Origin: an uncultured Candidatus Saccharibacteria bacterium
GTDB lineage: Bacteria; Patescibacteriota; Minisyncoccia; UBA6257; Colwellbacteraceae
DNA length: 64,000 bases
Direction: 5' to 3'
NCBI GenBank assembly: GCA_964643135.1
Contig: CAZXPC010000003.1
Location: forward strand, 6,152 to 70,151
Below, piece by piece: positions 1,968 to 55,134 of this stretch. Below the pieces are notes generated by a model that worked only from the letters and a program-made list of their open reading frames with translations, was not told the DNA's origin and searched no databases. A program made the translations under genes and the position numbers. Numbering within the stretch: position 1 is the stretch's first letter; every line of letters starts with the position of its first letter.

Positions 1968-1972
1968 GATTT

Positions 1973-2437: not shown

Positions 2438-2455
2438 TCTTTAATTATACGCGAA

Positions 2456-2977: not shown

Positions 2978-3053
2978 GTCTTGAACTATATCAATTTATT
3001 AAAAACTTACCAATCCAAGTTTCGACAGCCTTATTTGTGTTAAAATGATTTAA

Positions 3054-4712: not shown

Positions 4713-5333
4713 TTAGCCCAGATGGGCGTGGTCGTTCCAGGTAACCAGTTTCCACTTATCGTCTTTCCATTCACAAAGAGTTATGCCGGTGTTGCTGGCT
4801 ACAAAGAAGGCTGCAGATCTTTTTAGATGGTCGGGTTCCAGATTGTCTCCGAATTCCATGACACAAACTAAGGCCCGCAGGAATAATCCATGAGTTACAA
4901 GTAGAACATTTTCGCGGTCCGTCCCTTTTATGTATTCCAATGCTTTAATAGCCCGGGCGCGGAATTCAAAAAAAGTTTCTTCGTTGGAATGCCGGTAATT
5001 CGGGTTGTGCCAGTTGTCTCTAATGGTTTTTCTAATGGCGGTGATGGCGGGGTCAGCTTCTAATTTGCCAAGGATTTCGCTTGGACGCTTAATTTCCTGG
5101 AAAAGAGGAGAGGTTTCAACGGGTTTTTTAATTGCCAGACCGATTGTTTCGGCTGTTTGCTTTGCTCTTTGAAACGGGCTCGCTAAAATAGCGTCGATCG
5201 GAATTTTTGTGAAACGAGTCGCTATAAATTGGGCTTGTTTAAGACCGGTCGGCGAAAGGTTAGTTTCTGGATGCTGGTGCGTGCCGGCTTCGTTACCTTC
5301 ACTTTCGCCGTGGCGGACTAAATAAAGTTTCAT
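4713..5333 (-). CDS. Histidine phosphatase family protein (phosphoglycerate mutase-like)
   Basis: The N-terminal motif LYLVRHGESEGN is the RHG catalytic signature. Length is 206 aa. Confidence 0.85.
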   Translation of the reverse strand: MKLYLVRHGESEGNEAGTHQHPETNLSPTGLKQAQFIATRFTKIPIDAILASPFQRAKQTAETIGLAIKKPVETSPLFQEIKRPSEILGKLEADPAITAIRKTIRDNWHNPNYRHSNEETFFEFRARAIKALEYIKGTDRENVLLVTHGLFLRALVCVMEFGDNLEPDHLKRSAAFFVASNTGITLCEWKDDKWKLVTWNDHAHLG

Positions 5334-5822
5334 ATGTCAAAATTATAACAGTATAGAAAGATATTCACAGTTGATCGCTGGTATTGTTATCAAAAAGGTA
5401 TAGGATGGGGTTAAGAACTCAACCAATTTATTTTTGCAAAGCAACTAGCTTGATCTGATCTGCGAATGAAAAACGTAGGTCTGCGGGCAATTTCCTTTCG
5501 AGGGGAAGCATGCTCAACGCATTAATAAAAACGGTTGAGTTTAGAATTTTTCCGAGGAGTAACCCAGCCGGAGCCAAATTATCCGTTTACTAAGAAAGAA
5601 TTCGCTGCCCGCAGGCCTACACTTTCTATTCCTTTATATCGGCTATATCCTAACATAGCGCCATACCCTTGTCAAGGGCTAGGCGGCCATTACCGATCTT
5701 CCTTCGAAACCCAATTTCCCCTTCGTCACCACAGATAATTTCTACTGAAATTTCTTCTTCTCGACGCCTTCGCGTCTCCGAGAGGCTCCTCAGAGCAAAT
5801 TGGGTTTCTTCGTATGTCATGA

Positions 5823-5941
5823 ATAAGCCCGACCTTGTTCCATGAAGGGAATCTGCGCAAGCCCGTGAAGACGGGTGAGCAAAAACAAAAATCTCAGCAG
5901 AGATTTATTGTGTTTCCCGGAATGGGATGAGGGAGGGCGAG
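5823..5941 (-). repeat. Copy A of a dispersed intergenic repeat core (119 bp), about 95% identical to 33124-33243; lies in a 620-bp ORF-free spacer
   Basis: The reverse complement of 5823-5941 aligns to 33124-33243 with only a handful of substitutions. Those substitutions are concentrated in a hairpin (AAATCTC-TGCT-GAGATTT here, AATTTCT-TGCT-AGAAATT in copy B). Confidence 0.8.
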
Positions 5942-5960
5942 TTTACCTCGAGTTTTACCG

Positions 5961-7406
5961 CTATTTAATCCCATGCGCCTGCGATTCCCGGTAACCCCCT
6001 TCGGTGATTCTTATAAATTCTGCATTTTTTTGGAAAGTATCGATATCCTTAGCGCCTAAGTAACTCATGCTCGATCGAAAGCCGGCGAGCGTGTCTTTTA
6101 AAATAACGGCAACGTCGCCTTTGAATGGCACTTTACCCGACTTTCCTTCCGGGGCGCGGTAAAGACCATCAGAAGTTTTGTGTTCTTTGCGGAGTTTGTC
6201 TTCGAAGCTCTCGCGTGAGGCTCCACCGCGATAAATTTTATAAGCTTGGCCGGAATCCATTATATACTCGCCTGGTGATTCTTTGGTGCCGGAGATAATA
6301 CTGCCAACCATAACTGTGTTAGCGCCGGCAGCGATAGCTTTGGCTAAGTCTCCTGAGTTCCTTATGCCGCCGTCTCCTATGATTGGTACACCATATTTTT
6401 TAGCGGCGGCGGCGCAGAGTTGAATGGCGGTTAGCTGCGGCACGCCGACGCCGGTTACGACCCTAGTGATGCAAGTTGCCCCCGGGCCGATGCCAATCTT
6501 AACGCAATCAGCACCGGCTTTGATCAAATCAACTGTGCCCTGTGGCGTAGCGACATTGCCGGCCACCAGTTCAACGTGCTTAAGGTTTTTTCTAATAGTT
6601 TTCAGAGCATTAATGGCTCGTTCATTGTGCCCGTGCGCCACGTCCATGACTAGAACGTCGCAGCCGGCGTCAACAAGCAGTCCGGCGCGTTCTAAATAGT
6701 CTTCGTTGACGCCCACTGCCGCGCCAACTAGCAAGTGCCCGCTTTTGTCCTTGGCCGCATCGGGATAGAGCGTCTTTTTAACAATGTCGGTGGCGGTAAT
6801 TAGGCCTTTTAAGATACCCTTTTTGTCGACTAAGGGCAGTTTCTCAATCTTATTTCTGCGGAGCACTAGTTTGGCCTCATCTATCTTGATGCCCATTGGT
6901 GCAGTCACAACTTTCTTAGTCATGACGTCACCTATCTTTTTATTCAGATCAGTTTCAAAGCTCACATCGCGGTGAGTTATAATACCGATTACTCGTTTTT
7001 TATCATCGACAACGATTAGGCCCGAGACATTATTCTTGTCAGTAAATTTTTTAACGTCGAGGAGAGTTTTGTCGCTCGTAATTGTGTGCGGATTTTCGAT
7101 GATTACTCCTTCAGACCGCTTAACTTTCTCAACTTCGCGAGCCTGATCAATCTTATCCATAAAACGATGGATCACGCCCAGCCCTCCCATGTGTGCAAAA
7201 GCTTTAGCCATTTCGGACTCAGTCACTGTATCCATGTTCGCACTAACGAGCGGAATATTCAGATCAATATTGCGGCTAAATTTAGTTTTGGTTGAGGCAT
7301 CGCGGCGGGAATAGACATCAGATCGGCGCGGAACCAAAAGAACGTCATCAAATGTTAAGAATTCTTTTGATGAGTTTATGTTGCGATCTGAGAAGTAGTT
7401 CGACAT
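5961..7406 (-). CDS. guaB: Inosine-5'-monophosphate dehydrogenase
   Basis: [34 protein letters not shown] marks the catalytic Cys loop. There is a CBS-pair insertion. Length is 481 aa. Confidence 0.95.
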
Positions 7407-7457
7407 CTATAAGTATAACAAAAACCTCTTTCCATGTCAGTGTGCTAAAATAAATGA

Positions 7458-8729
7458 ATGGCTAACCAACAATTGGTAGATTACATCCAGGGGCAGCTAC
7501 AAAGGGGTGTAACCGAGATACAAATAAGGGAAATTTTGGCAGCGAACAATTGGCAGGCCAGAGACGTGGATGAGGCGTTCGTGTCCATTAACATGGGTGC
7601 GTCCATTAAGCCGGCTCAGGGCTATCGTAAAAGGAATAGGCTTTTGAGCGTTTGGCTCGGCTTCATGATAATTAGCTATAGCTTAATTATAGTTCTAATT
7701 TTTTTGGCGAAACTAGTATCGCCATTACTTAATCTTTTGACCGTTCTAGCTACCCTTGGTACATCGAGTTTTGATTTCGGCGCGTATGCAATAATTCTCC
7801 AATATTCAATCATCGCCTCTGTTTTTGGCATTTTGTGCGTCGTCTTCTTGTTTAGATGGCAGAAGTGGCCGTTTTGGTTTATTTGCTTTATGGCCGCAGC
7901 CGGATTGATTTTCAGCCTAATTTTTTCGCCTAACCATTCTTGGCTCAGCATTTCGGCCGTAATCATTTCAAGCATATTAAGCACCCTCCTCTTGTACCTG
8001 ATCCTAAAACCTCAGTGGCAATACTTTGAGAATAATATTCCCAAACCGAAAGACGCCGCTATTTTTGCGATAATAGGCGTTTTAGTGTCCGGCGGATTAA
8101 TATTATTATTTAATAATATCGGTTTTTCCGGTGGATCAGCCCTTTGTCCAGCTGATAGTTACAAAATTGTCGAAAGAAACAATGAGTTCACTGATGAAAA
8201 CATAGGAACTGCCCAAGCCGCCGACCATGAATATTGCGGAGTTTATAAAAGTTCCTACCCATATGTTTATGAGCACGCTGATTATGAGCGTGTTGATCAG
8301 CTCGATCAATTCAAGTTCCAGATATATCCGCCGGCGGGTTGGATTGTTAAGGATTCCCGGTCAGTTCTAAATAGCGCCGCTTCTACTATAAGTGATGATT
8401 CAGGCTCGGCTGGCTTGGAAATTGAAACCAATCACCCTTCGCCGAGAGGCTTGGATTTGGACGGATATATCAAAGATGACTATGTACGGCTGATGGAGAT
8501 GGTGGGAGAAACTTTGGATTCAAAATATATCACTATTTCGGGCGAGAGGGCTTATTGGCGCGCTTTTAGGAACGACGGCTCTGGCGCCTATGGCAAAGGA
8601 GAGCAACTATTTGTTATCCATAATCAATATGCGTATATCGTGACCGCCGGAGTGGCGGCAGAAGAGGATTGGGATAAATATAAAGATGTTTTGGAAAAAT
8701 CGTTGTTGAGTTTCGAAATACTTAAGTAA
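7458..8729 (+). CDS. Hypothetical membrane protein (soluble N-terminal domain, about 5 TM helices, C-terminal extracytoplasmic domain)
   Basis: ORF only. It has a hydrophobic core. No recognisable family. Confidence 0.5.
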   Translation: MANQQLVDYIQGQLQRGVTEIQIREILAANNWQARDVDEAFVSINMGASIKPAQGYRKRNRLLSVWLGFMIISYSLIIVLIFLAKLVSPLLNLLTVLATLGTSSFDFGAYAIILQYSIIASVFGILCVVFLFRWQKWPFWFICFMAAAGLIFSLIFSPNHSWLSISAVIISSILSTLLLYLILKPQWQYFENNIPKPKDAAIFAIIGVLVSGGLILLFNNIGFSGGSALCPADSYKIVERNNEFTDENIGTAQAADHEYCGVYKSSYPYVYEHADYERVDQLDQFKFQIYPPAGWIVKDSRSVLNSAASTISDDSGSAGLEIETNHPSPRGLDLDGYIKDDYVRLMEMVGETLDSKYITISGERAYWRAFRNDGSGAYGKGEQLFVIHNQYAYIVTAGVAAEEDWDKYKDVLEKSLLSFEILK

Positions 8730-15030: not shown

Positions 15031-15294
15031 GAAATAACCTAAGTCTAGGATAACATGATGGAAGTATTCTTGTCAAGTCCCTGATGGGGATGAAGCTTGG
15101 TCGTGTAAAACATCTGTAAAACAATTTAGCCCCATGTTTTATTGAGTTTATCAGTTTGTTTCACAAAAATGGTTTGTGAGAACGGCAAACATCAGGAATT
15201 CGAGAATTCAAAAAACCTAGTAAAACAGGGGTGTTAAACAAATTTGGGAAACCAGTGTGAGTACGTGAAACAATTGCTTCAGAGGCGGCAAACT

Positions 15295-15654
15295 CTAAAT
15301 ATTCTCGTAGTGTCTTGCCGAATGCGAGTTGCCGTTTAGAGTTATTGTAATAACATCAAGTCTCCAGCCCTTTCCGTCGTCTTTATTTTGGAAGTATATG
15401 TTGGCGTAGACATTACATGCTCGTTTGAACTTCTGAATCTTATGGGAGGTCATTTGGTCCTCTGGCGCTATTTCTCCGCCGGCACTGGTTTTAACCTCGA
15501 CAAAGACCAGGGTGCCATCAGGGTCAATAGTTATTATGTCTATTTCGCCCCACTTTTGGCGATGGTTTCGGGCTATTATTCTGTAACCTTTCTTAGCCAA
15601 ATACCGGCAGGCGAGATCCTCGCCTAATTTACCTGTTTCTGATTTATTATTCAT
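15295..15654 (-). CDS. yraN: YraN family (UPF0102) putative endonuclease
   Basis: GKLGEDLACRYLAKKGYRIIARNHR..GEIDIITID..LVFVEVK, the PD-(D/E)xK-like YraN pattern. Length is 119 aa. Confidence 0.85.
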   Translation of the reverse strand: MNNKSETGKLGEDLACRYLAKKGYRIIARNHRQKWGEIDIITIDPDGTLVFVEVKTSAGGEIAPEDQMTSHKIQKFKRACNVYANIYFQNKDDGKGWRLDVITITLNGNSHSARHYENI

Positions 15655-15743
15655 AATCGATGTTTGCCGTTCTCACAAGTCAAAGGCTATAATTATGTTA
15701 TAGAGTATAACACTAAAACAGTGGGAAACGTGAAACATTACGC

Positions 15744-16208
15744 ATGATCCTTAGTAATGAATATATCAGGGGTTTAATTGATGGAGAAGGCTGCTTTTCC
15801 TTTTGTACTATCCCTAGTTCTAAGAAGTTAGAAGGCAAGTTGATCAGGCAGAAAATCCCGGCTTTCTTACTAAATATGCATGTCAGAGATAAAGATTTGG
15901 TCCAAGGCGTTAGAGATCATTTGGGCTTGCGCAATAGGGTTTACGAATATAGGAGTACCCCATTACACGGGCATAATAAAAGTTATTTGAGAGGGAATAA
16001 GGCAGTGCTAATAGTTAGAGATCTCGGCCAGCTTAAAAATAAAATAGTACCTTTTTTCTACGGTAGGCTGAAAGGACATAAGGGGGAACAATTTAATATT
16101 TGGTTAGACAAGATAGGAAGCGACCCAGAAGTGGTTGATGACTATCGGTTGATATACCGTCTTCACAAGTCGGGTTGGTTTGAAAATAACCCAAAATATT
16201 CAGACTGA
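15744..16208 (+). CDS. Free-standing single-motif LAGLIDADG homing endonuclease
   Basis: YIRGLIDGEGCFSF is the LAGLIDADG motif. The downstream KAVLIVRDLGQLKNKIVPFFYGRLKGHKGEQFNIW matches the LAGLIDADG_3 core. Length is 154 aa. Confidence 0.8.
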   Translation: MILSNEYIRGLIDGEGCFSFCTIPSSKKLEGKLIRQKIPAFLLNMHVRDKDLVQGVRDHLGLRNRVYEYRSTPLHGHNKSYLRGNKAVLIVRDLGQLKNKIVPFFYGRLKGHKGEQFNIWLDKIGSDPEVVDDYRLIYRLHKSGWFENNPKYSD

Positions 16209-16218
16209 AACTTATTTG

Positions 16219-16290
16219 TGCGCGGTGAGGGATTCGAACCCCCGGCCTTGATGGTGTAAACATCCTGCTCTGCCGCTGAGCTAACCGCGC
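16219..16290 (-). tRNA. tRNA-Val (anticodon TAC)
   Basis: Cloverleaf folded by hand. Acceptor GCGCGGT/ACCGCGC. T-arm GGGGG-TTCGAAT-CCCTC. Anticodon loop TTTACAC. Discriminator A. Confidence 0.8.
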
Positions 16291-27767: not shown

Positions 27768-28057
27768 CTCCGAACTCGCTTCCGCCCCTCGGAACCAGGA
27801 TATTTTTTCTACTGAAAAAATTCCCTACCGCTCGGCTACCCGCCTCCGCAGTTTCCTCAGAGCGAAACCGAGTTCTCGGCTATGTAGAGGAAGACCCAAG
27901 CAGTAGGAAGAACATCCAAACTACTCTGAGGAGCCTCTCGCAGCCGTTCAATGCGGCGAGAATAAGAAAATCTAGCAAGATTTATCTGTGGTGACGAAGG
28001 GTAGTTTGGGGTTCTGACAAAGAAGGTTCCCGAAGAGGCTGTACTTGGAGAGCGATT
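27768..28057. repeat. Copy C of the modular intergenic repeat family (ORF-free, 290 bp, between ftsH and rpsA)
   Basis: Shares sub-modules with the other copies. CTCTGAGGAGCCTCTCG and ATCTGTGGTGACGAAGGG match copy A in reverse complement. CCCGAAGAGGCTGT matches copies B and D. TTCTCGGCTATG matches copy D. TTCTACTGAAA matches copy A. Confidence 0.7.
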
Positions 28058-33072: not shown

Positions 33073-33372
33073 CCGCCGCCTCCAACCACAGCCTCTTCGG
33101 GTAACATAATAAATCTGCTGAACCTCGCCCTACCCTCATCCCATTCCGGGAAACACAATAATTTCTTGCTAGAAATTTTGTTTTTGCTCACCCGTCTTCA
33201 CGGGCTTGCGCAGATTCCCTTCATGGAACAAGGTCGGGCTTATCTATATAGCCAGAAGAAATCCAATCTATCCTGATGGGATTCGCGGAGCCGTGTAGGC
33301 GAGCGGATACAAAATCCCTAGCAAGGGATTTATGTTGTTCCCTGAAGGGTAGATTGGATTTCGGAGGCGGGA
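33073..33372. repeat. Copy B of the modular intergenic repeat. A full-length element of about 300 bp, equivalent to 49164-49445 in inverted orientation, with its central core equal to copy A
   Basis: The ends (CCGCCTCCAACCACAGCCTCTTCGGG... and ...GGGATTCGCGGAGCCG.GT.GGCGAGC..CCCTGAAGGGTAGAT.GGATTTCGGAGG) match the reverse complement of 49164-49445. The centre, 33124-33243, matches the reverse complement of 5823-5941. Confidence 0.8.
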
Positions 33373-33411
33373 TTGTTTTCTGTCATCACAAAATACGATA
33401 TACTGAATACT

Positions 33412-34701
33412 ATGCAAATGACCAAACCTCAAATCGCTATCGTTGGCACAGTTGCGGCGATCTTCCTTCTTCTCGGCTTAGCTTTGATTTTCGGACGCAA
33501 AAGCGGTCCGGTTGCGCCTCCGCCTAAAACTCAAATTAATTTCTGGGGTTTTAAAGCCGATGAAAGCGCCTGGAAAAATGTCATTGATGCTTATTCAGCA
33601 GCCAATCCCACTGTTAATGTGACCTTAACCTCGGTTGACCCCGCTAATTACGAAGCGACCTTGATCGACAGCCTGGCCGCCGGAACGGGCCCCGACGTTT
33701 TTATGTTCTACTATGACTGGCTCACCAAGCACAAAAATAAAATTTTGCCGGCCCCAGCCACCATTACGCCGGATATGATCAGCAATCTTTTCCCCAAGGC
33801 GGTGGCTGAAGATTTTGTCTCCGACAGCCAAGTTTATGCCCTGCCGGTTTCTATAAACACACTCGCGCTGGCGTATAACCGCGATTATTTTGATGCTAAG
33901 GGAGTGCCTAATCCGCCCGCGAGTTGGGAAGACATAAAAAGCATGATTCCGAAACTTCGCGAATTAAATAACGGCAAAATTGTGAAGTCGGCCATTTCGA
34001 TTGGCGGAAGCGAGGACGGCCAGGGTCACATAAAAAACGCCGACGATATCCTAACTCTGATGTTGCTGCAAAACGGCGTTAATATCTTGGGCAATCCGCA
34101 GAACGGCGGCGGCATCGAGTCCCAGCCGGGGATCGATACGCTGAATTCATATTTAGATTTCTCGAATCCCTCATCAAAGAATTTCGCTTTCTATAGCGGC
34201 ACGACCGAAAATTCGCTTGACGCTTTTGCGAACGGCGACACGGCTATGGTTTTCGTTTACCCGCAGGATTTGCAGTATATCAAGTCTAAAAATCCGGTAC
34301 TGAACTATAAGGTCGTTCCGATGCTGCAATTGAATCCGAATAAGGCAGTTAATTTGACCGATTATTGGGGGCTAGCTGTTTCAAATCGAACCGCCAGCCA
34401 TGCTTCGGCCTGGAGTTTTATTTCCTTTGCCGCCATGAATGAGGCGATGGCTAAAACTTACGCTTCAACGTCGCAAAATCAGCCGGCTTTGCGGTCGGTT
34501 ATCGCGAGTTTCAACCCGGATCCGATTTTGGGCGTATTTGCGCCGCAGGCCCTGAACGCGGTGAGCTTCCCGAAAAATAACCGCGACGGTTTTCGCGCCA
34601 TTATCGACAATATGATAGAATCATCTTTGAAGGATCGCTCTAACGTTGCCGCCGCAGCCGCTACGGCTGATGCAGGGCTGAAGAGCGCGATTCAAAAATA
34701 G
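33412..34701 (+). CDS. Extracellular solute-binding protein (ABC transporter SBP family 1), orphan
   Basis: N-terminal TM/signal segment. SBP_bac_1-like pattern (INFWGF...LAAGTGPDVF). No permease or ATPase genes adjacent. Confidence 0.75.
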   Translation: MQMTKPQIAIVGTVAAIFLLLGLALIFGRKSGPVAPPPKTQINFWGFKADESAWKNVIDAYSAANPTVNVTLTSVDPANYEATLIDSLAAGTGPDVFMFYYDWLTKHKNKILPAPATITPDMISNLFPKAVAEDFVSDSQVYALPVSINTLALAYNRDYFDAKGVPNPPASWEDIKSMIPKLRELNNGKIVKSAISIGGSEDGQGHIKNADDILTLMLLQNGVNILGNPQNGGGIESQPGIDTLNSYLDFSNPSSKNFAFYSGTTENSLDAFANGDTAMVFVYPQDLQYIKSKNPVLNYKVVPMLQLNPNKAVNLTDYWGLAVSNRTASHASAWSFISFAAMNEAMAKTYASTSQNQPALRSVIASFNPDPILGVFAPQALNAVSFPKNNRDGFRAIIDNMIESSLKDRSNVAAAAATADAGLKSAIQK

Positions 34702-36470: not shown

Positions 36471-36523
36471 GTAGGGCCATATGTGTAAAGCAGAGGCGCC
36501 AAAGCTGTATGGCATATTTTATT

Positions 36524-37286
36524 TACGATCGTGAACATAGTGTATCTTCTCGAGTTTCTGGCTAATTTATTTTGAGCGGCTGTTTTTCACTGCAGATTCC
36601 TTGCCTGCCGGTTCTTCATTTTCTATTTACTATATTTATATATTATCTTCACGATCGTGAAGATAATATATGTGTATGAGGGGAGATCTAAAGAATAAAA
36701 TTCTAGAAAATATTTTGGAGACGGCCATTTCGCCCGCAGAACTATTTGAGGCTGTGATCAGGGCCGGCTATGGTGCATCTGTGCGTGGAATTGATTGGCA
36801 GCTGGAGAAGGTTAGAGCTAGAAGGCAAGATGTTTTAAATATCTTGGCCAAGAAGAAAAGTTTCTACAATACTCTCCAGAGGCTAAAGAGGGATGGTTTG
36901 ATTGAAAGATCGGGCAAGGGCTGGATAGCGACTAAATTAGGTCGAGGGATCTTTACGGTCTCTGATAACAGGCCTTCCCGATCGGCATATCCATCGACAG
37001 AAAAGACCAGCTATACAACGATTATCATATTCGATGTGCCAGAAACGCATCGATACAAGCGCGATTGGCTGAGAGATAGCCTTAAAAATATGGGTTTCAA
37101 GATGGTTCAAAAGAGTGTTTGGTCGGCTCAAGTTAAGATTCCACGCGCTTTTATAGATGATTTAGAAAGTTTTGCTCTTATTGACTGCGTCGATATATTT
37201 CAGGCGACCAAGCTTGGCTCGCTGGCTAAATCCTAAAAAAACTTAAATGATTAAGATCAATATATATTATTCACGATCGTGAGAAA
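36524..37286. promoter_or_regulatory. Three copies of the palindromic operator TTCACGATCGTGAA bracketing the gene 36670-37236
   Basis: Sites at about 36526-36539 and about 37272-37285, plus the extended perfect 22-bp palindrome TATCTTCACGATCGTGAAGATA at 36645-36666. The extended copy overlaps a GATAAT -10-like hexamer 4 bp before the ATG. Confidence 0.7.
36670..37236 (+). CDS. Winged-helix (PaaX-N-like) DNA-binding domain fused to a C-terminal Cas2-like domain; putative autoregulator
   Basis: N-terminal half (..SFYNTLQRLKRDGLIERSGKGWIATKLGRG) looks like a wHTH. C-terminal half (TIIIFDVPETHRYKRDWLRDSLKNMGFKMVQKSVWSAQVKIPRAFIDDLESFALIDCVDIF) follows the Cas2 core pattern [YF]D[VI]..R.R..L...G.R.Q.SV[FW]...D.V.I[FY]. 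Palindromic sites flank the gene. Confidence 0.6.
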   Translation: MCMRGDLKNKILENILETAISPAELFEAVIRAGYGASVRGIDWQLEKVRARRQDVLNILAKKKSFYNTLQRLKRDGLIERSGKGWIATKLGRGIFTVSDNRPSRSAYPSTEKTSYTTIIIFDVPETHRYKRDWLRDSLKNMGFKMVQKSVWSAQVKIPRAFIDDLESFALIDCVDIFQATKLGSLAKS

Positions 37287-38031: not shown

Positions 38032-39045
38032 CTAGGCCCGCGTCGGGTCGCAGTTCACGACCTTGCCCGCTACGCTCGAGTAGAGGTAGAAGTCCGGGCC
38101 GACGTTGTCGAGGTGCGCGTCCGAAGACACGAACATCCACCCTGACTGGACCCAGGAGTAACCCAGGTCGTTCGGGTGTGCCGCGACTGCGCTGTCGTAG
38201 TCGGCTTTCGACTGGTAGAAGCGCGCGACTCCGGCTCCCTGGGCATTGCACGTGAGTCTGGTGACTCCCGTGTCGTGCCCGGTGAAGCGGAACGGTCCGC
38301 TCAACCCTTGCGCCAGCGTGATGACGTCGGCGCCGTAGTTGAGGTAGGTTCCTTTCACTGGGGTGGCCGGGGCTCCGCTGCCGGATGTCGTCACGTTGTT
38401 GATCTTCTCGATCGTGATGTGCCAGTTGGTCGTCCAGGGGTTGTAGTCCCGGAAGGCCATATGGTCAGCGTTCGGGTAGTTCGAGGCGTTCTTGAAGCCC
38501 GAACAGTCCGAGAAGATCATTCCCGAGAGAGCATTCGCTTCCCCAGGAGCGTTGTCGAGCGCGCAGCTGCCCAGAGGAACTGCCGTGGTCAGGTTGACCG
38601 CGAGTCCGCCGAAGCTGCCGATCGAAGCCACGACGAAGTGTTCTCCGAGCTTGCGAACGCTGACTTGGTTCGGAGCGGTGTAGTTCGTTGCGTTCCACCA
38701 CTGGTCTAGATTTGTCACCTTCGCGTCCTTGAAGTCCGCGATGGTGCCGATGCCGCCATCGAGCGTCCACGATTCCGTTGCCGCAGCTGGAGGGCTGGGC
38801 GCAGAATCCGCGGGGTTGTCGTTCGCGTGGTTCGCCGCGACAGCTGCCGCGATGTCCTCCGCGCTTGCCGGGGGAGTCGTCGGGATCTGGTGGAGGAGCT
38901 CGTTGTTCTCCTTGCCGATATCGATCAGCTTGTTGGCCTGGTCTGCGGTCATGCCGTCGGATTCCTTCTTTGCCGCACATCCCGCGAGGGAAATGGTCAG
39001 GAATAGCGTCGCCACCAGGGCGATCATCTTGGGGTTGGGCTTCAT
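38032..39045 (-). CDS. Lipoprotein (lipobox LAGC), hypothetical, high-GC (about 62%) gene
   Basis: N-terminus MKPNPKMIALVATLFLTISLAGC gives a signal peptide plus lipobox Cys. No recognisable domain. Several long antisense shadow ORFs overlap it. Confidence 0.65.
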   Translation of the reverse strand: MKPNPKMIALVATLFLTISLAGCAAKKESDGMTADQANKLIDIGKENNELLHQIPTTPPASAEDIAAAVAANHANDNPADSAPSPPAAATESWTLDGGIGTIADFKDAKVTNLDQWWNATNYTAPNQVSVRKLGEHFVVASIGSFGGLAVNLTTAVPLGSCALDNAPGEANALSGMIFSDCSGFKNASNYPNADHMAFRDYNPWTTNWHITIEKINNVTTSGSGAPATPVKGTYLNYGADVITLAQGLSGPFRFTGHDTGVTRLTCNAQGAGVARFYQSKADYDSAVAAHPNDLGYSWVQSGWMFVSSDAHLDNVGPDFYLYSSVAGKVVNCDPTRA

Positions 39046-39257
39046 TTCAAGTGTCCTCCCGTTATCAAGGTGCTGGCTTAACAGAGTCTATACTCCCGTT
39101 AGGGAGCTAGACTAGCTAGCACCTCAAACGAGTGTGGGACTATGTAAACATACATACGCTATTCTTGTCAAGTCCCCAGGAAACTTAGTGGCCTTTATAG
39201 GCCTTGACAAGACATTGGAGATCTGTTAATCTAAACCGTCAAAATATAAATAAGACT

Positions 39258-41387
39258 ATGATGATAAACCCAAAAAACAAGCAGACCGCCGGTTTCGGAG
39301 CGATGCAAGTCGTAATTGTAGTCGGCGTGGTGGCCGTTCTGGCCTTGTTATTCTTCGGTTTGCCGGGCGGAGTTAAGGATTTCTTCGCTAAATTAAAGGG
39401 TGGGACCGCTTCGATCTCCAGCTTTGGTGATTTTCAGAAAGACGCCAACAATAATATCAGCATCGACAGCGTGGCGGACACGATGGTTAAGGATTTGATG
39501 TCGGTTCAGACTATGGCTAAGGCGGAAACTGGGGACAAGAAAGACGGCATCTGTTTCAAGAATCCGGCTGCCGAAACCGATTTCTATAATATAGTTTCTA
39601 ACATCTCCGGCACCGACGCTTGCGATAGCGCGGCTTCGATTGTCAATGTCGTTTCTTTGCCGAGCGGGATCAGTATTGTAGATCCAGCCACTGGCAGCAA
39701 TAAATCTATTGTTTTCCAGAAAGACGGCACCTCTGTTGCCTCAACCGATCAAACTATTAAAATTGCGTCTTCAACTGAAACTCGAATTGTGACGGTTACG
39801 CCGTCCGGCAACGCAACTTTCAGCGTCGGCGCTCCTAGCACGGCTTCAGCCGGGGCTTCATCGGGATCGGGCGGGACCACAACTATCATCAGGACAGTAA
39901 CCGCGGATAATACCGGCCAGATTAATGCTCTTAGCAATGTGGCGAACGGCTTGGCCAATGTTTTGGGTTCGATTAGGACCCTGCAGAATCAAAACACTGT
40001 TGTCACTGTCCCGGTTCCTGTTCAGGTCCCTGTGCCGGTCAATGTTACTTCGGGCGCTCCTTCTCAGCCTTCGAATCTTTACGCTCAAGGAAGCTACGGC
40101 TATATTGCATTGAATTGGACGGTTTCAGCCGGCGCTATCTCGACCTATAAAATTTATCGCAGCCAATATCCCGGCCAGGAGTCGTTCTTAGCCTCGGTTG
40201 GAGCGATTAATTATTACGCCGATTACAGCGTGGCCGCCGGTTCGACCTACTACTACAAAGTTACGGCCGTCAATACAGCAGGGCAGGAGAGTCCGCTTTC
40301 AAACGAAGCGTACTCGGCCGCTTATGTTCAGAGTCCTGTTACTTATTACACACCCGTTCCCGTTCCGGCTCCGGTTCCGCAGCAGCCTCAGATTTTTCAA
40401 CCATCGGTGCCGACTATTGTTTCGGCTGCCTATTACCCGGGCAACGGGGTTGTCTTGAACTGGCTCGCTCCACAGTCTAACGGTAATTCTTATATCGTCG
40501 GCTACAGGGTTTATCGCAATATTTCGGTGGTAAATTCCAGCTTGATTTACGATTCAACTTCTCAGAGCACAACCTACACCGATTCAAGCCTGGCGCCGAA
40601 CACTAACTATTGCTACCAGATTAGCGCCAAAAATCAGCAGTACGAAAGCCCACGGTCAGCCGCGCAATGTGTTTATACTTATGTAGCTCAGACCCCATCA
40701 CCTACTCCTAGCCCGAGCCCAGCTCCTCAGACCCCGACTTACTACTCTCCTTATCCGTCATCGACGCCTCCTGCGACTTACTACTACACTCCCGGAACTT
40801 CTACGAACCAGACGCCTACTTACTATTCTCCGACTTCGTACTCGAACCAGCCGGCTACTTATTACACTACTAGCGGCTCTTCAACACCGGCGGCCACTTA
40901 CTACACAACCGCTCCGAACGGAACTCAAGCTGCTACTTACTATACGACTAGCGGTTCGGGTACTCCGTCGGCAACCTACTACACGACTTCTTCGACATCG
41001 GGTACGCCATTAGGAACCTATTACGCAACGTCAGGATCTACTAGCGGCACTCCATCGGCCACTTACTACACAACTAGTGGTTCTTCAACCCAGGCAGGCA
41101 CGTATTACGGTACCCAAACTTCGACCACTCCAGGAGCGACTTATTACACAACCAGCGGCAGCACCAGCTCATCGCCGGCCACTTATTACTCAACTGGCTC
41201 TACCGCTACTCCATCAGCAACTTATTATTCGACAGCTAGCGGTTCGGGTACGCCGAGCGCTACTTATTACACTACTAGCGGCTCTTCAACGCCGGCTGGA
41301 ACTTATTACACAACCGCTCCGAGCGGAACTCAAGCCGCGACTTATTACAGTTCTTCATCAACTCCATCGGCGACTTACTACCCCTAA
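39258..41387 (+). CDS. Large secreted/surface protein with two fibronectin type III-like domains and a C-terminal Tyr/Thr/Ser-rich tandem-repeat region (ATYYTTSGSSTP-like, about 20 units)
   Basis: N-terminus KQTAGFGAMQVVIVVGVVAVLALLFFGL is a signal anchor, possibly pilin-like. FN3-like blocks (..LNWTVSAG..YKIYRS..YYYKVTAVNTAGQES.. and ..LNWLAPQSNG..YRVYRN..YCYQISAKN..). Imperfect tandem repeats at about 40740-41390. The TTGACA-17-TAATCT promoter is at 39204-39232. The ORF-track start at 39204 is an upstream TTG extension. Confidence 0.7.
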   Translation: MMINPKNKQTAGFGAMQVVIVVGVVAVLALLFFGLPGGVKDFFAKLKGGTASISSFGDFQKDANNNISIDSVADTMVKDLMSVQTMAKAETGDKKDGICFKNPAAETDFYNIVSNISGTDACDSAASIVNVVSLPSGISIVDPATGSNKSIVFQKDGTSVASTDQTIKIASSTETRIVTVTPSGNATFSVGAPSTASAGASSGSGGTTTIIRTVTADNTGQINALSNVANGLANVLGSIRTLQNQNTVVTVPVPVQVPVPVNVTSGAPSQPSNLYAQGSYGYIALNWTVSAGAISTYKIYRSQYPGQESFLASVGAINYYADYSVAAGSTYYYKVTAVNTAGQESPLSNEAYSAAYVQSPVTYYTPVPVPAPVPQQPQIFQPSVPTIVSAAYYPGNGVVLNWLAPQSNGNSYIVGYRVYRNISVVNSSLIYDSTSQSTTYTDSSLAPNTNYCYQISAKNQQYESPRSAAQCVYTYVAQTPSPTPSPSPAPQTPTYYSPYPSSTPPATYYYTPGTSTNQTPTYYSPTSYSNQPATYYTTSGSSTPAATYYTTAPNGTQAATYYTTSGSGTPSATYYTTSSTSGTPLGTYYATSGSTSGTPSATYYTTSGSSTQAGTYYGTQTSTTPGATYYTTSGSTSSSPATYYSTGSTATPSATYYSTASGSGTPSATYYTTSGSSTPAGTYYTTAPSGTQAATYYSSSSTPSATYYP

Positions 41388-49163: not shown

Positions 49164-49445
49164 TTTCGTTTTCCCATCTTCTTTCGCCCCCCCTCCGAAA
49201 TCCGATCTACCCTTCAGGGCACAGGATAAATTTGGGGCTCAAATTTTCCTTTCAGCTCGCCTAACCCGGCTCCGCGAATCCCTTCAGAATAGATTCGGAT
49301 TTCTCGGCTATGCAGACCGAAAGAGCCGTAAACCACAAGCCCCACAGGGAACATCGCGGAAGGAGTGTAGACGACTGAGCGCGAAGAAAAATTTCAGTCA
49401 GAAATTTATTCTGTTTCCCGAGGAGGCTGTGGTTGGAGGCGGACT
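49164..49445. repeat. Copy D of the modular intergenic repeat. A full-length element in inverted orientation relative to copy B
   Basis: The reverse complement of 49164-49445 matches both end modules of 33073-33372 at about 85-90% identity. The centre is different. A compensatory hairpin AAATTTG-AGCCC-CAAATTT here corresponds to AAATCCCT-AGCA-AGGGATTT in copy B. Confidence 0.8.
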
Positions 49446-49482
49446 GATAGTTTTGGGTTCTGGTAGAGTTCGGTATAGAATT

Positions 49483-52055: not shown

Positions 52056-52061
52056 AGTTTG

Positions 52062-52133
52062 TGCCGGATCCCAGAATCGAACTGGGTACGCCAGCCTCTT
52101 CAGGGCTGCGCTCTGCCAATGAGCTAATCCGGC
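52062..52133 (-). tRNA. tRNA-Phe (anticodon GAA)
   Basis: Acceptor GCCGGAT/ATCCGGC. D GCTC/GAGC. Anticodon stem CAGCC/GGCTG, loop CTGAAGA. T-arm CCCAG-TTCGATT-CTGGG. Confidence 0.8.
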
Positions 52134-52204
52134 GATACTAGAGATAGTAACTTCTGGCGATTAAAATTGCAATTGAGTATTATTCGCTATATTCTGAAAG
52201 CCTA

Positions 52205-52276
52205 GCCCTTGTCGTTCAATGGACAGGACAGAGGTTTCCTAAACCTTAAATGGAGGTTCGATTCCTCCCGAGGGCA
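52205..52276 (+). tRNA. tRNA-Arg (anticodon CCT)
   Basis: Acceptor GCCCTTG/CGAGGGC. Anticodon stem GAGGT/ACCTT, loop TTCCTAA. T-arm GGAGG-TTCGATT-CCTCC. Confidence 0.7.
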
Positions 52277-52338
52277 CAAAATTGGCAAATTTGAATAATT
52301 TATTTTACACTGGTAAAACCTCCGGAACGAGGTTAGAC

Positions 52339-52410
52339 CCTCCTGTAGTTCAATGGATAGAATAGGGAACTTCTAATTCCTTGATCGAGGTTCGATTCCT
52401 CGCGGGAGGA
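52339..52410 (+). tRNA. tRNA-Arg (anticodon TCT)
   Basis: Acceptor CCTCCTG/CGGGAGG. Anticodon stem GGGAA/TTCCT, loop CTTCTAA. T-arm CGAGG-TTCGATT-CCTCG. Confidence 0.7.
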
Positions 52411-52420
52411 CAAGCAGCGA

Positions 52421-52491
52421 CGGGCCGTCGTATATTGGTAGTATACCTGTTTTGGGAACAGGCGGGCTGGGTTCGATTCCCAGCGGCCCGA
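52421..52491 (+). tRNA. tRNA-Pro (anticodon TGG)
   Basis: Acceptor CGGGCCG/CGGCCCG. Anticodon stem CCTGT/ACAGG, loop TTTGGGA. T-arm CTGGG-TTCGATT-CCCAG. The D stem has G-U pairs. Confidence 0.65.
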
Positions 52492-52557
52492 CATCTTAAA
52501 AATAAATAGAGATTTGTAGCAAAAAATAATATATTGTTATAGTATTGTTTTCATCAT

Positions 52558-52629
52558 GGTGCCTATAGCTCAATGGTAGAGCGCCTCCCTGTGGAGGAGG
52601 ATACACGGGTTCGATCCCCGTTAGGCACC
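52558..52629 (+). tRNA. tRNA-His (anticodon GTG) with an encoded G-1
   Basis: Extra 5' G before acceptor GTGCCTA/TAGGCAC. Discriminator C. Anticodon stem CCTCC/GGAGG, loop CTGTGGA. T-arm ACGGG-TTCGATC-CCCGT. Confidence 0.85.
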
Positions 52630-52660
52630 CAATTATAAACTGTCGGCCGAATTAAAAAGA

Positions 52661-52689
52661 TTGACAAACATAATCACCCTCTCTAGAGT
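52661..52689 (+). promoter_or_regulatory. TTGACA-17-TAGAGT promoter-like element upstream of the Orc1/Cdc6 gene
   Basis: TTGACA at 52661-52666, a 17-nt spacer, then TAGAGT at 52684-52689. Same architecture as the promoters at 29291 and 39204. Confidence 0.5.
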
Positions 52690-52772
52690 GGGAATGTTGG
52701 GGTGACAACAACTTGACGACCAAATCCAAACCGAAAGAGGGAATCTTCGATTCGCTCTTGAGGAGCGAGCCG

Positions 52773-53966
52773 ATGTTCAGAAACAAGGAAGTCCTGCGGT
52801 CTAGCTACATGCCTGACGAGCTGCCGCACCGGACGACCCAGATCAATCAGCTCGCGGCGATCCTCGTTGGGGCGCTCAAGGGTGAAACGCCCTCGAACGT
52901 CCTTATCTACGGGCAGTCGGGAACTGGGAAAACCGCGGTGGCGCGCTTCGTGGGCAACGAGCTGCAGAAGACGGGGAAGGAGAAGGACCAGACGGTCTTT
53001 TTCGTCTATATCAACTGCCAGCTCGTCGACACGCAGTATCGAGTCCTCACGCACATCGCGAACCATTTCATCGAGAACTGGGACGACCGCATCCCGTTCA
53101 CGGGCTGGCCGACGGACGAGGTCTACAACAAGCTGAAGCAGAAGATCGACGAGAAGGGAGGCGCCTGCGTCATCGTCTTGGACGAAATCGACAAACTCGT
53201 TTCCAAGGCCGGCGACGACATCCTCTACGCACTCTTGTCGATCAACAGCGACCTGAAGAGCGCGAAGGTGTCCGTGATCGGCATCTCGAACGACCTGAAG
53301 TTCACTGAGCTTCTCGACCCGCGCGTGAAGTCGCGCCTGGGCGAGGAGGAGGTGATCTTCCCTTCGTACGACGCCGTGGAGCTCCAGGACATCATGAAAC
53401 AGCGCGCAGAGATGGCGTTTCAGGGAGGTTCGCTGGAAGACAGCGTCATGCCTCTTTGCGCCGTTTTGGCCGCACAGGAGCATGGCGATGCTCGTCGAGC
53501 GCTGGACCTTCTTCGCGTCGCCGGCGAATTGGCGGAGCGGGAGGGCCAGAAGTCAGTGAGTGAGAAGTACGTGCGGAAGGCTCAGAACAAGATCGAGGGC
53601 GACCGCGTGACCGAGGTCGTGCGCACGCTTCCCACGCAGAGCAAGATCGTGCTTCTCAGTGCGATCTTCGGCGAAGAATCGGGAACGAAGAGTCTCACGA
53701 CCGGCGAGGTGTACGACACGTACCGCGAACTTTGTGAGGAAGCCCGCCAGGACATCCTCACGCAGCGCCGCGTTACGGACCTCATCTCGGAACTCGACAT
53801 GCTCGGAATCTTCCGGGCGCGGGTTGTCTCCAAGGGGCGTTACGGACGCACCAAGGAGATCGAGCTGGCCATTCCGGTTGAAGAGACCAAGGCTGTGCTC
53901 TGCGAGGATCCTGTCGTGGGGCCAGTCATGGGGTTCCGCCCAAAGAAGCAATCGAGGCTCTTCTAG
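52773..53966 (+). CDS. Orc1/Cdc6-family AAA+ ATPase (archaeal/eukaryotic-type replication initiator homolog), high-GC islet
   Basis: N-terminal MFRNKEVLRSSYMPDELPHRTTQINQL follows the Orc1/Cdc6 IF.N.E.L...Y.P..LPHR..Q pattern. Walker A LIYGQSGTGKTAVA. Walker B VIVLDEIDKL. Sensor-1 ISN. C-terminal winged helix. About 60% GC against about 40-45% in the flanks. An alternative TTG start at 52713 (ORF-track start) would add 20 aa. Confidence 0.8.
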   Translation: MFRNKEVLRSSYMPDELPHRTTQINQLAAILVGALKGETPSNVLIYGQSGTGKTAVARFVGNELQKTGKEKDQTVFFVYINCQLVDTQYRVLTHIANHFIENWDDRIPFTGWPTDEVYNKLKQKIDEKGGACVIVLDEIDKLVSKAGDDILYALLSINSDLKSAKVSVIGISNDLKFTELLDPRVKSRLGEEEVIFPSYDAVELQDIMKQRAEMAFQGGSLEDSVMPLCAVLAAQEHGDARRALDLLRVAGELAEREGQKSVSEKYVRKAQNKIEGDRVTEVVRTLPTQSKIVLLSAIFGEESGTKSLTTGEVYDTYRELCEEARQDILTQRRVTDLISELDMLGIFRARVVSKGRYGRTKEIELAIPVEETKAVLCEDPVVGPVMGFRPKKQSRLF

Positions 53967-54030
53967 TCAGCGAACGTCGCCCCCCACGGGTTATTCGCGC
54001 CATCTGTGCAAACAGACCGCGCATAACCCG
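53967..54030 (+). terminator. Terminator-like hairpin (ACGGGTTAT ... ATAACCCGT plus a T7 run) after the Orc1/Cdc6 gene
   Basis: 9-bp stem with a long loop, followed by TTTTTTTATTT. Confidence 0.5.
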
Positions 54031-54060
54031 TTTTTTTATTTCTCTGATATACTTAAATGC

Positions 54061-55134
54061 ATGAGTAAAATTGCTAAATATCTCCGGCCGGCCGCTGTAT
54101 TTTTGGGTTTTTTATTTTTAGCTAAATCGGCTTCGGCGCACGAGGCTTATGTCTTGCCGCAGGCTGATTTTTGGGCGGCTATGAATTCTCCTTTTAGTTT
54201 GTATTCTTTGGATGCTTTGAAAGATCCCAATAATATTTTGATTGCCGTTCAAATTTTTGCCGGAGTGTCGCTGATGCTTGTTTTGAGCTTTTTCTTCCGG
54301 CGGTCAAAGCTGGGTAAGAAGTTAAACGATAAGATAGAAACTTTGTCGCCGATCGGTCTGCTTTTTGTGAGAGCCGCGCTCGCCATTTCATTATTTTTTT
54401 CGGCTTATTCATATGATTTTCTGGGTCCGGAACTGAAAATGTCGTTCCTGCCTTTTGCGCCATTGATCCAGGCCGCTCTCTACCTTATCAGTTTCATGAT
54501 TGCGGTCGGGTTTCTGACCGAATTAGCGGCCGGCGCCGCCCTCATCATATTCTTCATCGGGTTCTTTACCTTCGGCGGCTATGTTTTTACCTACCTGAAT
54601 TATCTGGGTTCAATATTAGTACTGCTGCTTTTTGGGATGCGTAAATGGTCGGTGGACGGCTACCTTTTCGGCCCGCTCAAACGATTTAAAGATTTCAGAA
54701 AATATGGAACCACAATCGTCCGGATTTGTTACGGTTTGGCGCTCGTTTACGCGGCGGTCACGGTAAAGTTCCTCCACCCGGAGCTGGTGGTCGATATTGT
54801 TAAGACCTGGAACCTGACTCAATTCGGCTGGCTTTTTCCCTCGGATCCGCTTTTGATCGCGTTTGGCGCCGGTCTCGCTGAAACCGCCATTGGTTTATTT
54901 ATAATTTTCGGTTTTGAGCTGAGGCTGACGGTTTTAGTCAGTTTGTTTTATATCACGCTCTCTTTGTTTTTCTTCAGAGAATTAGTTTGGCCGCATTTGA
55001 TGCTTTACGGCATATCTTTTAACTTGCTGGTCCAGCCGGAAATATTTACACTCGACCATTTCTTTGAGAAAAAGCTCTCCAATTTGTGGCTGCATCCGTT
55101 CCATCCGCACGTTAAAGCCAGCGAGAAAAAGTAG
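54061..55134 (+). CDS. Hypothetical polytopic integral membrane protein
   Basis: About 357 aa from the MSKIAKYL start, with multiple TM helices and low GC. The ORF-track start at 53659 is an artefactual extension overlapping the Orc1 gene in another frame. Confidence 0.55.
   Translation: MSKIAKYLRPAAVFLGFLFLAKSASAHEAYVLPQADFWAAMNSPFSLYSLDALKDPNNILIAVQIFAGVSLMLVLSFFFRRSKLGKKLNDKIETLSPIGLLFVRAALAISLFFSAYSYDFLGPELKMSFLPFAPLIQAALYLISFMIAVGFLTELAAGAALIIFFIGFFTFGGYVFTYLNYLGSILVLLLFGMRKWSVDGYLFGPLKRFKDFRKYGTTIVRICYGLALVYAAVTVKFLHPELVVDIVKTWNLTQFGWLFPSDPLLIAFGAGLAETAIGLFIIFGFELRLTVLVSLFYITLSLFFFRELVWPHLMLYGISFNLLVQPEIFTLDHFFEKKLSNLWLHPFHPHVKASEKK

Follow-up and report, generated by a model that had tools for sequence, protein, structure and literature searches.

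The window analysed here, a 64-kb stretch of contig CAZXPC010000003.1, belongs to a Paceibacterium whose GyrA is 73% identical to Candidatus Colwellbacteria sequences. Four of its intergenic spacers, labelled A to D, hold a family of non-coding, structured, repeated elements, the subject of this report. Genes for GyrA and an S1-domain protein stand upstream of spacers B and C, respectively, as had been guessed in the original prediction, which was made from the sequence alone. The other array ends are surrounded by genes for IMPDH, FtsH, ClpP, TyrRS, a solute-binding protein (SBP) and a histidine phosphatase. Each spacer is an array of one non-coding unit of ~115-125 nt, organised as a head-to-head inverted pair, and the window contains in total 8 full units and 2 truncated units. 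An nhmmer profile and a covariance model (R1) run against the 64 kb recovered exactly 8 full units and 1 partial unit, with no other match, and all of these 8.5 units are intergenic. The units, which belong to subfamilies alpha to delta, are listed below together with the array centres. P1, P2 and P3 are the stems of the unit fold described in the following section, R2 is a second covariance model trained on metagenome units alone, and L numbers denote loci from other genomes and metagenomes.

5694..5819, minus strand: unit A_L, gamma, the right-hand unit of array A on the minus-strand reading; nhmmer E 1e-27; R1 89.9 bits; Y-shaped fold of -39.8 kcal/mol, versus -29.4 for the reverse complement; 75% identical to C_R
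5817..5954, plus strand: unit A_R, alpha; P2 hairpin at 5889-5906; R1 102.7 bits
27760..27887, minus strand: unit C_L, beta-like; R1 89.5 bits; forward fold -47.8, versus -26.5 for the reverse complement
27880-27887: centre of array C, CTATGTAG, equivalent to that of B, as read from the sequence
27900..28026, plus strand: unit C_R, gamma; R1 75.9 bits; R2 24.9 bits, E 0.004
28027..28057, plus strand: truncated delta-type half unit beside the S1-gene stop; blastn match of 28029-28050 to 33101-33080 (91%) and pairwise alignment to the D_R tail
33073..33121, minus strand: truncated delta-type half unit (3' half, from the P2 3' arm to the tail) directly after the gyrA stop; nhmmer partial match 33076-33121, E 0.0016; 92% identical to the D_R tail over 39 nt
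33111..33249, minus strand: unit B_M, alpha; P2 hairpin at 33160-33177; R1 105.8 bits; forward fold -43.4, versus -31.9
33244..33251: centre of array B, CTATATAG, at which B_M and B_R meet, 5' head to 5' head, as read from the sequence
33246..33374, plus strand: unit B_R, beta; P2 hairpin at 33312-33331; R1 95.9 bits; forward fold -48.7 (z -6.8), versus -38.8 for the reverse complement; 74% identical to D_L and 70% to L116a
49185..49313, minus strand: unit D_L, beta; R1 103.6 bits
49308-49315: centre of array D, CTATGCAG, likewise equivalent to that of B
49318..49452, plus strand: unit D_R, delta, complete; R1 100.5 bits; nearest relative L124b in another genome (61%)

The proposal that the four loci share sequence was confirmed by a repeat search, in which the shared blocks lay well above chance. 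The middle of B proved nearly identical to the reverse complement of A, as had been stated (5823-5933 versus 33133-33243, 93% over 111 nt). The ends of B and D are alike (33328-33371 versus 49188-49231, 89%; 33076-33114 versus 49404-49442, 92%), and D differs from B by a deletion of 49 nt between direct repeats CGGG(T/A)AAC. C was linked to A and B, with 76% identity between 5697-5770 and 27950-28023. In a sensitive all-versus-all comparison, the aligned length was 247 nt for B and the reverse complement of A, about 225 nt for B and that of D, and about 125 nt for C and D. A degenerate pattern derived from the columns conserved in all copies matched exactly these four loci, with 0 matches expected from shuffled sequences.

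Cutting each locus in two gave eight half-elements that could all be aligned with one another, as copies of one unit. Homology thus extends over the full length, and the evolving entity is the ~115-nt unit, rather than the mosaic of 14-30-bp modules described earlier. The arrays are composed of alpha and gamma (A), half-delta, alpha and beta (B), half-delta, gamma and beta (C), and delta and beta (D); this free combination of subfamilies between loci accounts for the mosaic impression. Pair partners are 35-46% identical, and each unit has its best match (54-92%) at another locus or in another genome. At the level of whole arrays, the outer tails provide the terminal inverted repeat CCGCCTCC/GGAGGCGG, and a -/+ junction in L124 carries ATCTGTAG. 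In B and C, an extra truncated unit lies beside the upstream stop codon; the CCGCCTCC module begins immediately after the gyrA stop at 33073, as had been reported, and 5 nt past the stop of the S1 gene, where direct adjacency had also been claimed. Two further details required revision. Copy A, given as 5340-5960, belongs to the family only from 5694 to 5954, and 5334-5690 is unrelated. The spacers are not strictly ORF-free, since chance ORFs are present (e.g. 33276-33527), although these are not conserved among the copies.

Fold, covariation and hairpin replacement

Every unit that was folded alone (12-13 units) adopted the same Y-shaped three-way junction. P1, the long outer stem of 11-27 bp, is variable in sequence and forms a terminal inverted repeat in every unit. 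P3 is a GC-rich hairpin whose purine internal loop, GCRCAG/GGAG...(C)GAG (GGAG/GCAG ... GAG), is conserved, and the P3 sequence of C_L, GCGGAGGCGGGTAGCCGAGC, is identical in L116a from another genome. P2 is a hairpin, AT-rich in these units, with an AGCA (or AGUA) loop. An extra helix, P1b, occurs in the window clade only and is set off by tandem YGAR/YGAR G.A mismatches. Such loops between P1 and P1b are found in about 10 of 15 window-clade units, and were compared by sequence reading with the box C/D kink-turn, defined by a 3-nt bulge followed by tandem sheared G.A pairs from the C (RUGAUGA) and D (CUGA) boxes. B_R reads CUGAUGG...CUGA, but the predicted helix runs on without the 3-nt bulge, and the motif is absent in the metagenome subfamily.

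Covariation was found in all helices, beyond the two hairpins quoted in the original prediction. In a MAFFT alignment of 12 units, 83.8% of the helix cells were paired, versus 67.1% in shuffled alignments (0/500) and 38-58% in controls with slid partners, and 27 of the 33 pairs had double changes. Extension to 15 units, including L121a, L124a and L124b, which took no part in model building, gave 83.6% paired cells versus 64.1% shuffled (0/500) and 38-57% slid, double changes in 29 of the 33 pairs, and a covariation score of 0.597 versus 0.263. These controls account only partly for relatedness, and the values are strong indications, not probabilities.

The fold is also strand-specific. The forward strand was more stable than its reverse complement in 12 of 12 units (mean difference -12.6 kcal/mol), and in 13 of 13 units with both RNA parameters (mean -14.3 kcal/mol) and DNA parameters (mean -4.0 kcal/mol), partly because the forward strand is G-rich; z-scores favoured it in 11 of 12 units. 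Among the non-Watson–Crick helix cells, G.T outnumbered A.C by 55 to 15 (p about 2e-6), whichever chromosome strand held the unit. With units present on either chromosome strand, mutation bias linked to replication or transcription is excluded as the cause of this excess, and selection or a propagation filter acting on a single-stranded form (RNA or DNA) is required. The family-wide covariation and the excess of G.T over A.C constitute the evidence for selection on structure, and they support the earlier proposal of a structured element family.

The argument from which that proposal had started fared differently. It rested on compensatory changes between near-identical copies, and both quoted hairpin pairs are correct (e.g. 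AAATCTC-TGCT-GAGATTT in A and AATTTCT-TGCT-AGAAATT in B). However, the ~118 nt of A_R and B_M, which are 92% identical overall, differ by one 1-nt indel and 8 substitutions, all of which lie in the P2 stem, where they form 4 compensatory pairs; the other ~108 positions are unchanged. By our own calculation, the chance that all 8 would fall in P2 under uniform mutation is roughly (14/118)^8, about 4e-8. This comparison of sequences indicates block replacement of the hairpin, through short-patch conversion by another unit or template switching, instead of stepwise compensation, and thus points to the origin that the original prediction had itself named as counting against selection. The 100% identity of the two units outside P2 points to a recent event of copying or conversion. 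Among 16 units, 12 distinct P2 stems occur, with the loop conserved. A similar pattern is seen in two units located after secY (L139 and L243), which are probably orthologous: their P3b arms are swapped and their P1 stems are wholly different, with a nearly identical core. The A_R/B_M pair provides a clear example of whole-hairpin replacement mimicking compensatory evolution.

Distribution in Paceibacteria and insertion at gene junctions

Metagenome sequences were retrieved using the GC-rich P2 hairpin common to L121 and L124 as a probe (ATCCGCC-AGCA-GGCGGATA), which returned at least 120 stretches, many of them from groundwater samples. R1 identified 41 units (32+9) in the probed metagenome loci, and 0 in 755 kb of unrelated DNA. 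This negative control consisted of the loci obtained by scanning genome contigs with a loose pattern, CGGAGNCGNGN{0,1}WAGSCGN{45,75}TTCGRAGG, which gave chance matches in GC-rich genomes among those listed and the element in no fetched locus. A pattern for the beta-type P3 gave 0 matches in JGI metagenomes and viral contigs.

In the canonical metagenome unit, P1 (11-27 bp) is perfect but varies greatly in sequence, and the core, which is conserved, reads ACAUUGC-GCAG-(GC hairpin with a GACG-type loop)-CGAG-CA-UA-GCAAUCCGCC-AGCA-GGCGGAU-A-UGCGYG. In the 41 units, 89.1% of cells were paired, versus 71.8% shuffled and 34-51% slid, with 224 double-change cells versus 72; P2 was fixed by the retrieval probe in this set, and P1 and P3 were free. 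R2 found 79 units in 641 kb, at least 9 of them far from probe sites. It also recovered L121a, L124a and L124c strongly, and L116a and C_R of the window weakly, which makes the window units diverged subfamilies of a broad family. The family therefore reaches far beyond this genome, a breadth that lay outside the view of a single-sequence reading.

The carriers are Paceibacteria. The unit in L243, for example, adjoins the end of secY, and the named relatives of this gene are in Candidatus Paceibacterota, Parcubacteria and Jorgensenbacteria. Units of the broad family are mostly single or in direct tandem, and head-to-head pairing appears to be specific to the window clade. They are intergenic, often starting within a few nt of a stop codon, and lie on the same strand as the neighbouring genes in 47 cases and on the opposite strand in 24 (about 2:1). 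Two loci contain compound forms (L128 64-184 and L135 about 3100-3170), in which a P3-like and a P2-like hairpin stand directly upstream of a canonical core; the P2-like stem differs (CUUUUCC-AGCA-GGAAAAG), and no P1 stem lies in between. This organisation suggests nested or fused units.

Searches of Rfam 15, as advised in the original prediction, yielded no family match for the element. The window gave tRNAs only, both at gathering thresholds and at E<=1, and copy B gave nothing relevant at E<=10; the metagenome loci gave only tRNA, tmRNA and RNase P (20 loci at gathering thresholds and 11 loci at E<=1). No counterpart of the unit was found in the literature searched. The 71 ORFs flanking metagenome units matched 98 Pfam families, none with more than 2 members and all with ordinary housekeeping functions. 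The roughly 50 larger window ORFs scanned include none for a transposase, a reverse transcriptase or a Nop, Cas or TnpB-like protein, and no RAYT (Y1 transposase) was found among these or the 71 neighbours. The scanned window ORFs contain only a syntenically conserved XerC/D-like recombinase and a LAGLIDADG endonuclease.

Relatives of the host with the same gene order differ from the window at the junctions that carry arrays. The intergenic distances were as follows.

gyrA to SBP: window 347 nt; L122 5 nt; L119 12 nt; L121 98 nt; L113 154 nt, with a decayed relic; L116 331 nt, with a -/+ pair
S1 gene to FtsH: window 290 nt; L122 overlapping; L117 47 nt
ClpP to TyrRS: window about 320 nt; L124 1 nt

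As the same junctions are compact in relatives, the elements are insertions. The converse case is found in L124, where three units (-,-,+) follow a PNPase-like gene and the window has a gap of 67 nt upstream of the matching downstream gene. Likewise, a unit after secY is present in L139 and L243 and absent from L246. The contig of L117 ends inside an element. These comparisons show that units were copied into very short gaps between housekeeping genes, typically just after a stop codon, splitting operons. At the orthologous gyrA-SBP site, the window and L116 carry different unit subfamilies, which suggests turnover or repeated insertion. The relic in L113 has decayed (20 bits, fold z -0.6), and, because it no longer folds, no individual site depends on the element.

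A 383-nt gyrA-SBP spacer in L120 was considered as a further member; it is weakly structured (z -1.9, -2.8) and recognised by neither R1 nor R2, and was treated as unrelated. This spacer (5125-5507) and that between secY and adk in L246 (5273-5506) are long spacers of distant relatives that neither covariance model matches, and other spacer elements, unrelated or very diverged, may exist in this group.

Identity of the element

Among known repeats, the closest of the identities offered earlier are the REP-like and MITE-like ones. Using the criteria for REPINs (PMC3116915), the family resembles REP/BIME and REPIN-RAYT systems in being extragenic, multi-copy, non-coding and structure-forming, with a strand-specific fold. 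Further likenesses are the inverted pairs and higher-order arrays mixing subtypes, as in BIMEs, the common compensatory changes, the decay of singlets or relics (here the L113 relic), the absence of terminal inverted repeat and target-site duplication logic, and the absence of a linked gene at most copies. It differs in that the unit is a branched three-way junction of 110-125 nt, whereas REPs are simple hairpins of 20-40 nt. The pair partners are never mutual closest relatives, so that a pair is no foldback that replicates as one entity, and local pairing (84%) greatly exceeds foldback pairing. The GTAG-like tetranucleotide at the 5' end of REPs has only a loose equivalent (ATAG, GTAG, GCAG, CATG, TAAG), confined to the window clade, and the sequence scanned contained no RAYT gene.

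MITE-like repeats (ERIC/IRU, Correia/NEMIS, pneumococcal BOX and RUP) were compared by their general features, some of them described in reviews (PMC3184786, PMC2229807). They share with the units a length of 100-170 nt, a terminal inverted repeat (P1 in the units), an intergenic position often with co-transcription, and presence/absence polymorphism among relatives; BOX elements also share a modular or mosaic composition. A simple MITE is contradicted by the lack of a consistent target-site duplication at the copy ends, a check raised in the original prediction. No consistent direct repeat surrounds the 7 arrays or units of the window clade; a TTACCG 6-mer flanks array A only, within chance (about 0.6 expected for 7 arrays). 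Among 39 metagenome units, no flank recurs except AGCGA...GAGCG, present in about 1/3; being conserved within a subfamily, it does not represent a variable duplication. In addition, the terminal stem is variable and the internal core conserved, no transposase was found in the scanned window ORFs, and no parent insertion sequence is known.

The miniature elements derived from IS200/IS605 (PATEs) likewise have strand-specific hairpins, no requirement for classical terminal inverted repeats or target-site duplications, and possibly a conserved tetranucleotide beside the 5' end, and a minimal element of ~110-120 nt would fit a left-end plus a right-end hairpin. PATEs are defined by cleavage-site and guide relationships; unlike PATEs, the unit encloses its two hairpins in the long P1 stem, and no TnpA or TnpB gene was found in the scanned ORFs. 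TIGR arrays occur in the same host group, the Candidate Phyla Radiation (CPR), some of them with "variable but consistently palindromic" stems (PMC12045711). They consist, however, of dual-spacer units of about 36 nt in tandem runs of 5-15 beside a Nop-domain gene, in contrast to the ~115-nt units here, which are dispersed or paired, with no Nop domain in the scanned window ORFs or neighbours. We conclude that the element is a bacterial interspersed structured repeat without a match in Rfam 15 or the literature searched; it resembles REP/BIME and MITE families, yet the tested defining features of each fail, and it is not a member of either as currently defined.

We favour, with a probability of about 0.5, a non-autonomous interspersed element whose copying would pass through a single-stranded intermediate (DNA or RNA) and whose fold would be the feature recognised. 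A trans-acting factor with its gene at another place in the genome would bind the folded Y-shape, chiefly at the conserved P3/P2 core; the closest analogy to this factor may be an HUH/Y1-type enzyme, as in REP-RAYT and IS200/IS605. Only copies that keep the fold would propagate, and resident copies could decay. Such a restriction would explain both the covariation and the excess of G.T over A.C on both chromosome strands. After insertion, the elements would presumably be co-transcribed as stable 3' structures, tolerated by or useful to the host.

Several observations weigh against an origin by mobility. No mobilising enzyme was found among the ORFs scanned in the 64 kb read, and a consistent target-site duplication is lacking. 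The conservation of the internal core and variability of P1 are the reverse of the classical MITE, in which transposase binds conserved ends. The three-way junction, purine internal loops, about 9% G.U pairs and tandem G.A mismatches are more typical of functional RNA than of known single-stranded DNA transposon ends, and the conservation of the core across many Paceibacteria species, as well as the orientation bias toward the strand of the neighbouring genes, fits a role at the RNA level. Identity between loci could also result from gene conversion instead of transposition, and the metagenome set, fetched with one P2 sequence, is a biased sample.

Some of these points favour the main rival, a host-serving RNA element at mRNA 3' ends, which we consider possible though clearly less probable. 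The units would then be cis-acting elements selected within mRNAs, as 3'-end stabilisers, RNase processing sites or insulators between transcription units; a conserved Paceibacteria protein would bind the P3/P2 core, and copies spread by occasional duplication or recombination would be kept where useful. Besides the RNA-like architecture, with its conserved AGCA and GACG-type loops, this proposal is consistent with the location of units at or near stop codons and upstream of the -10-like box of the next gene, and with the unit that L139 and L243 (SecY 89% identical) appear to have retained at a shared position behind secY. It is difficult to reconcile with the window arrays, each of which combines one sense and one antisense unit that both keep the strand-specific fold, since only one member of such a pair can serve in a read-through transcript. 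The absence of the element at the same junction in close relatives, along with the decayed relic, argues that no site depends on it. Intrinsic termination is not its function either: a terminator scan gave the level of shuffled sequences, and none of 39 metagenome units has a T-tract after P1. The two readings are compatible, as a mobile element may have been co-opted.

Other RNA-based explanations have less in their favour. Independent small-RNA genes, which had been offered as an identity and would in the window be transcribed divergently from the pair centres to act in trans, are improbable. Starts at an AT-rich centre such as CTATATAG would transcribe both units of a pair in the folding orientation, and the strand-specificity of the fold agrees with this. 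However, sigma-70-like promoter signals and terminator signals in or next to the units are no commoner than in shuffles, the centres are not conserved outside the window clade, where most members are single or tandem, and dozens of divergent paralogues per genome, together with decaying copies, would be unusual for a trans-acting RNA. It is even harder to see the units as orphan guide or scaffold RNAs of an RNA-guided mobile system (TnpB/IscB omega RNA, IS110 bridge RNA or TIGR) with P2 or P1 as the specificity determinant, and we regard this as very improbable. The block exchange of P2 between otherwise identical units, the diversity of P2 stems around a constant loop, the wholly different P1 of the probable secY orthologues and the presence of TIGR systems in CPR bacteria (PMC12045711) are what such a system might be expected to show. 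Yet the match of P2 arms to their own flanks does not exceed that to permuted flanks (4.44 versus 4.38, p 0.44), and the variable segments are fully paired internally, leaving them unavailable for target pairing. Furthermore, no TnpB, IscB, IS110 or Nop-domain gene lies beside any unit, among the scanned window ORFs and the 71 neighbours, and the units are dispersed instead of forming tandem arrays of 36-nt units.

A number of further identities were considered and rejected. CUGAnGA-like strings recall the hammerhead and other small ribozymes, with a core spacing that does not fit and no Rfam match. A T-box leader upstream of tyrS (copy D) has no Rfam match, and the other copies are not beside aminoacyl-tRNA synthetase genes. 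Small peptides and an SD-like GGAGG tail were considered from the sequence; relatives do not conserve the in-frame extension that leads into the SBP gene. Repeats of diversity-generating retroelements, attC sites of integrons and DNA-uptake sequences appear unlikely: by eye, the differences between copies do not look adenine-specific and there is no obvious R'/R'' core site, and the units reside in core housekeeping operons.

The genomes of CPR/Patescibacteria are among the smallest and most tightly packed in bacteria, and selfish repeats are generally considered rare there. The window nevertheless has ~300 nt of element at four operon junctions per 64 kb, where relatives have 1-12 nt or overlapping genes, and dozens of Paceibacteria contigs from the environment carry the same fold. 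If mobile, the element would serve as a marker of genome dynamics and operon splitting, and would point to a mobilising enzyme; if a functional RNA, it would be a widespread, strongly covarying three-way-junction motif without a counterpart in Rfam 15. More speculatively, and in our judgement doubtful, the family could represent a new class of structured nucleic-acid element, confined to Paceibacteria/CPR and not recognised before. Two forms are conceivable: a widespread functional RNA that has colonised operon junctions, or a substrate for a new mobilisation system guided by structure, in which the P3/P2 core would be recognised and P1, P2 and P3b rewritten concertedly by whole-stem swaps.

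Other features of the window and its relatives

The left part of spacer A (5334-5690, about 360 nt) is a candidate structured leader or sRNA. Its minus strand folds with z -3.4, including a 15-bp long-range stem (about 5476-5490 with 5606-5620). A sigma-70-like site (TTGACA-17-TAGGAT, 5675-5647) precedes the region, the histidine-phosphatase gene follows it, and it has no Rfam match.

A perfect 20-nt inverted repeat (15174-15193 and 15659-15678) brackets a UPF0102/NERD-type nuclease gene (15295-15654), adjoining the LAGLIDADG endonuclease ORF (15744-16208) and tRNA-Val (16218-16290); the repeat and the nuclease gene may form a small mobile cassette. A 23-nt motif with the palindrome TCACGATCGTGA occurs four times, in both orientations (36512-36534, 36638-36660, 37260-37282 and 38395-38417), around a gene with a PaaX_M/Cas2-like domain (36670-37236) and tRNA-Leu. 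These motifs look like operator or binding sites. Downstream of a pilin gene cluster, 39204-41387 (plus strand) encodes a 727-aa protein with fn3 and GspH-like domains, whose C-terminal region (about 40750-41380) consists of tandem ~39-nt (13-aa) repeats of the type ATYYT(T/S)SG.

Directly after a cluster of five tRNA genes (52061-52630), this bacterial (Paceibacteria) genome carries a gene for a 417-aa Cdc6/Orc1-like AAA+ protein (52713-53966, plus strand; Pfam Cdc6_C 1.5e-30, Cdc6_lid 5.8e-28). It overlaps with ORFs at 52683-53483 (minus strand) and 53659-55134 (plus strand), and may be part of an integrated element. In L125, a Paceibacteria contig, the TyrRS gene is followed by a phage-like block (1641-8620) encoding HNH_5, N6_N4 methyltransferase, HTH_Tnp_1_2 and terminase large subunit proteins, which is probably a prophage or integrated element.

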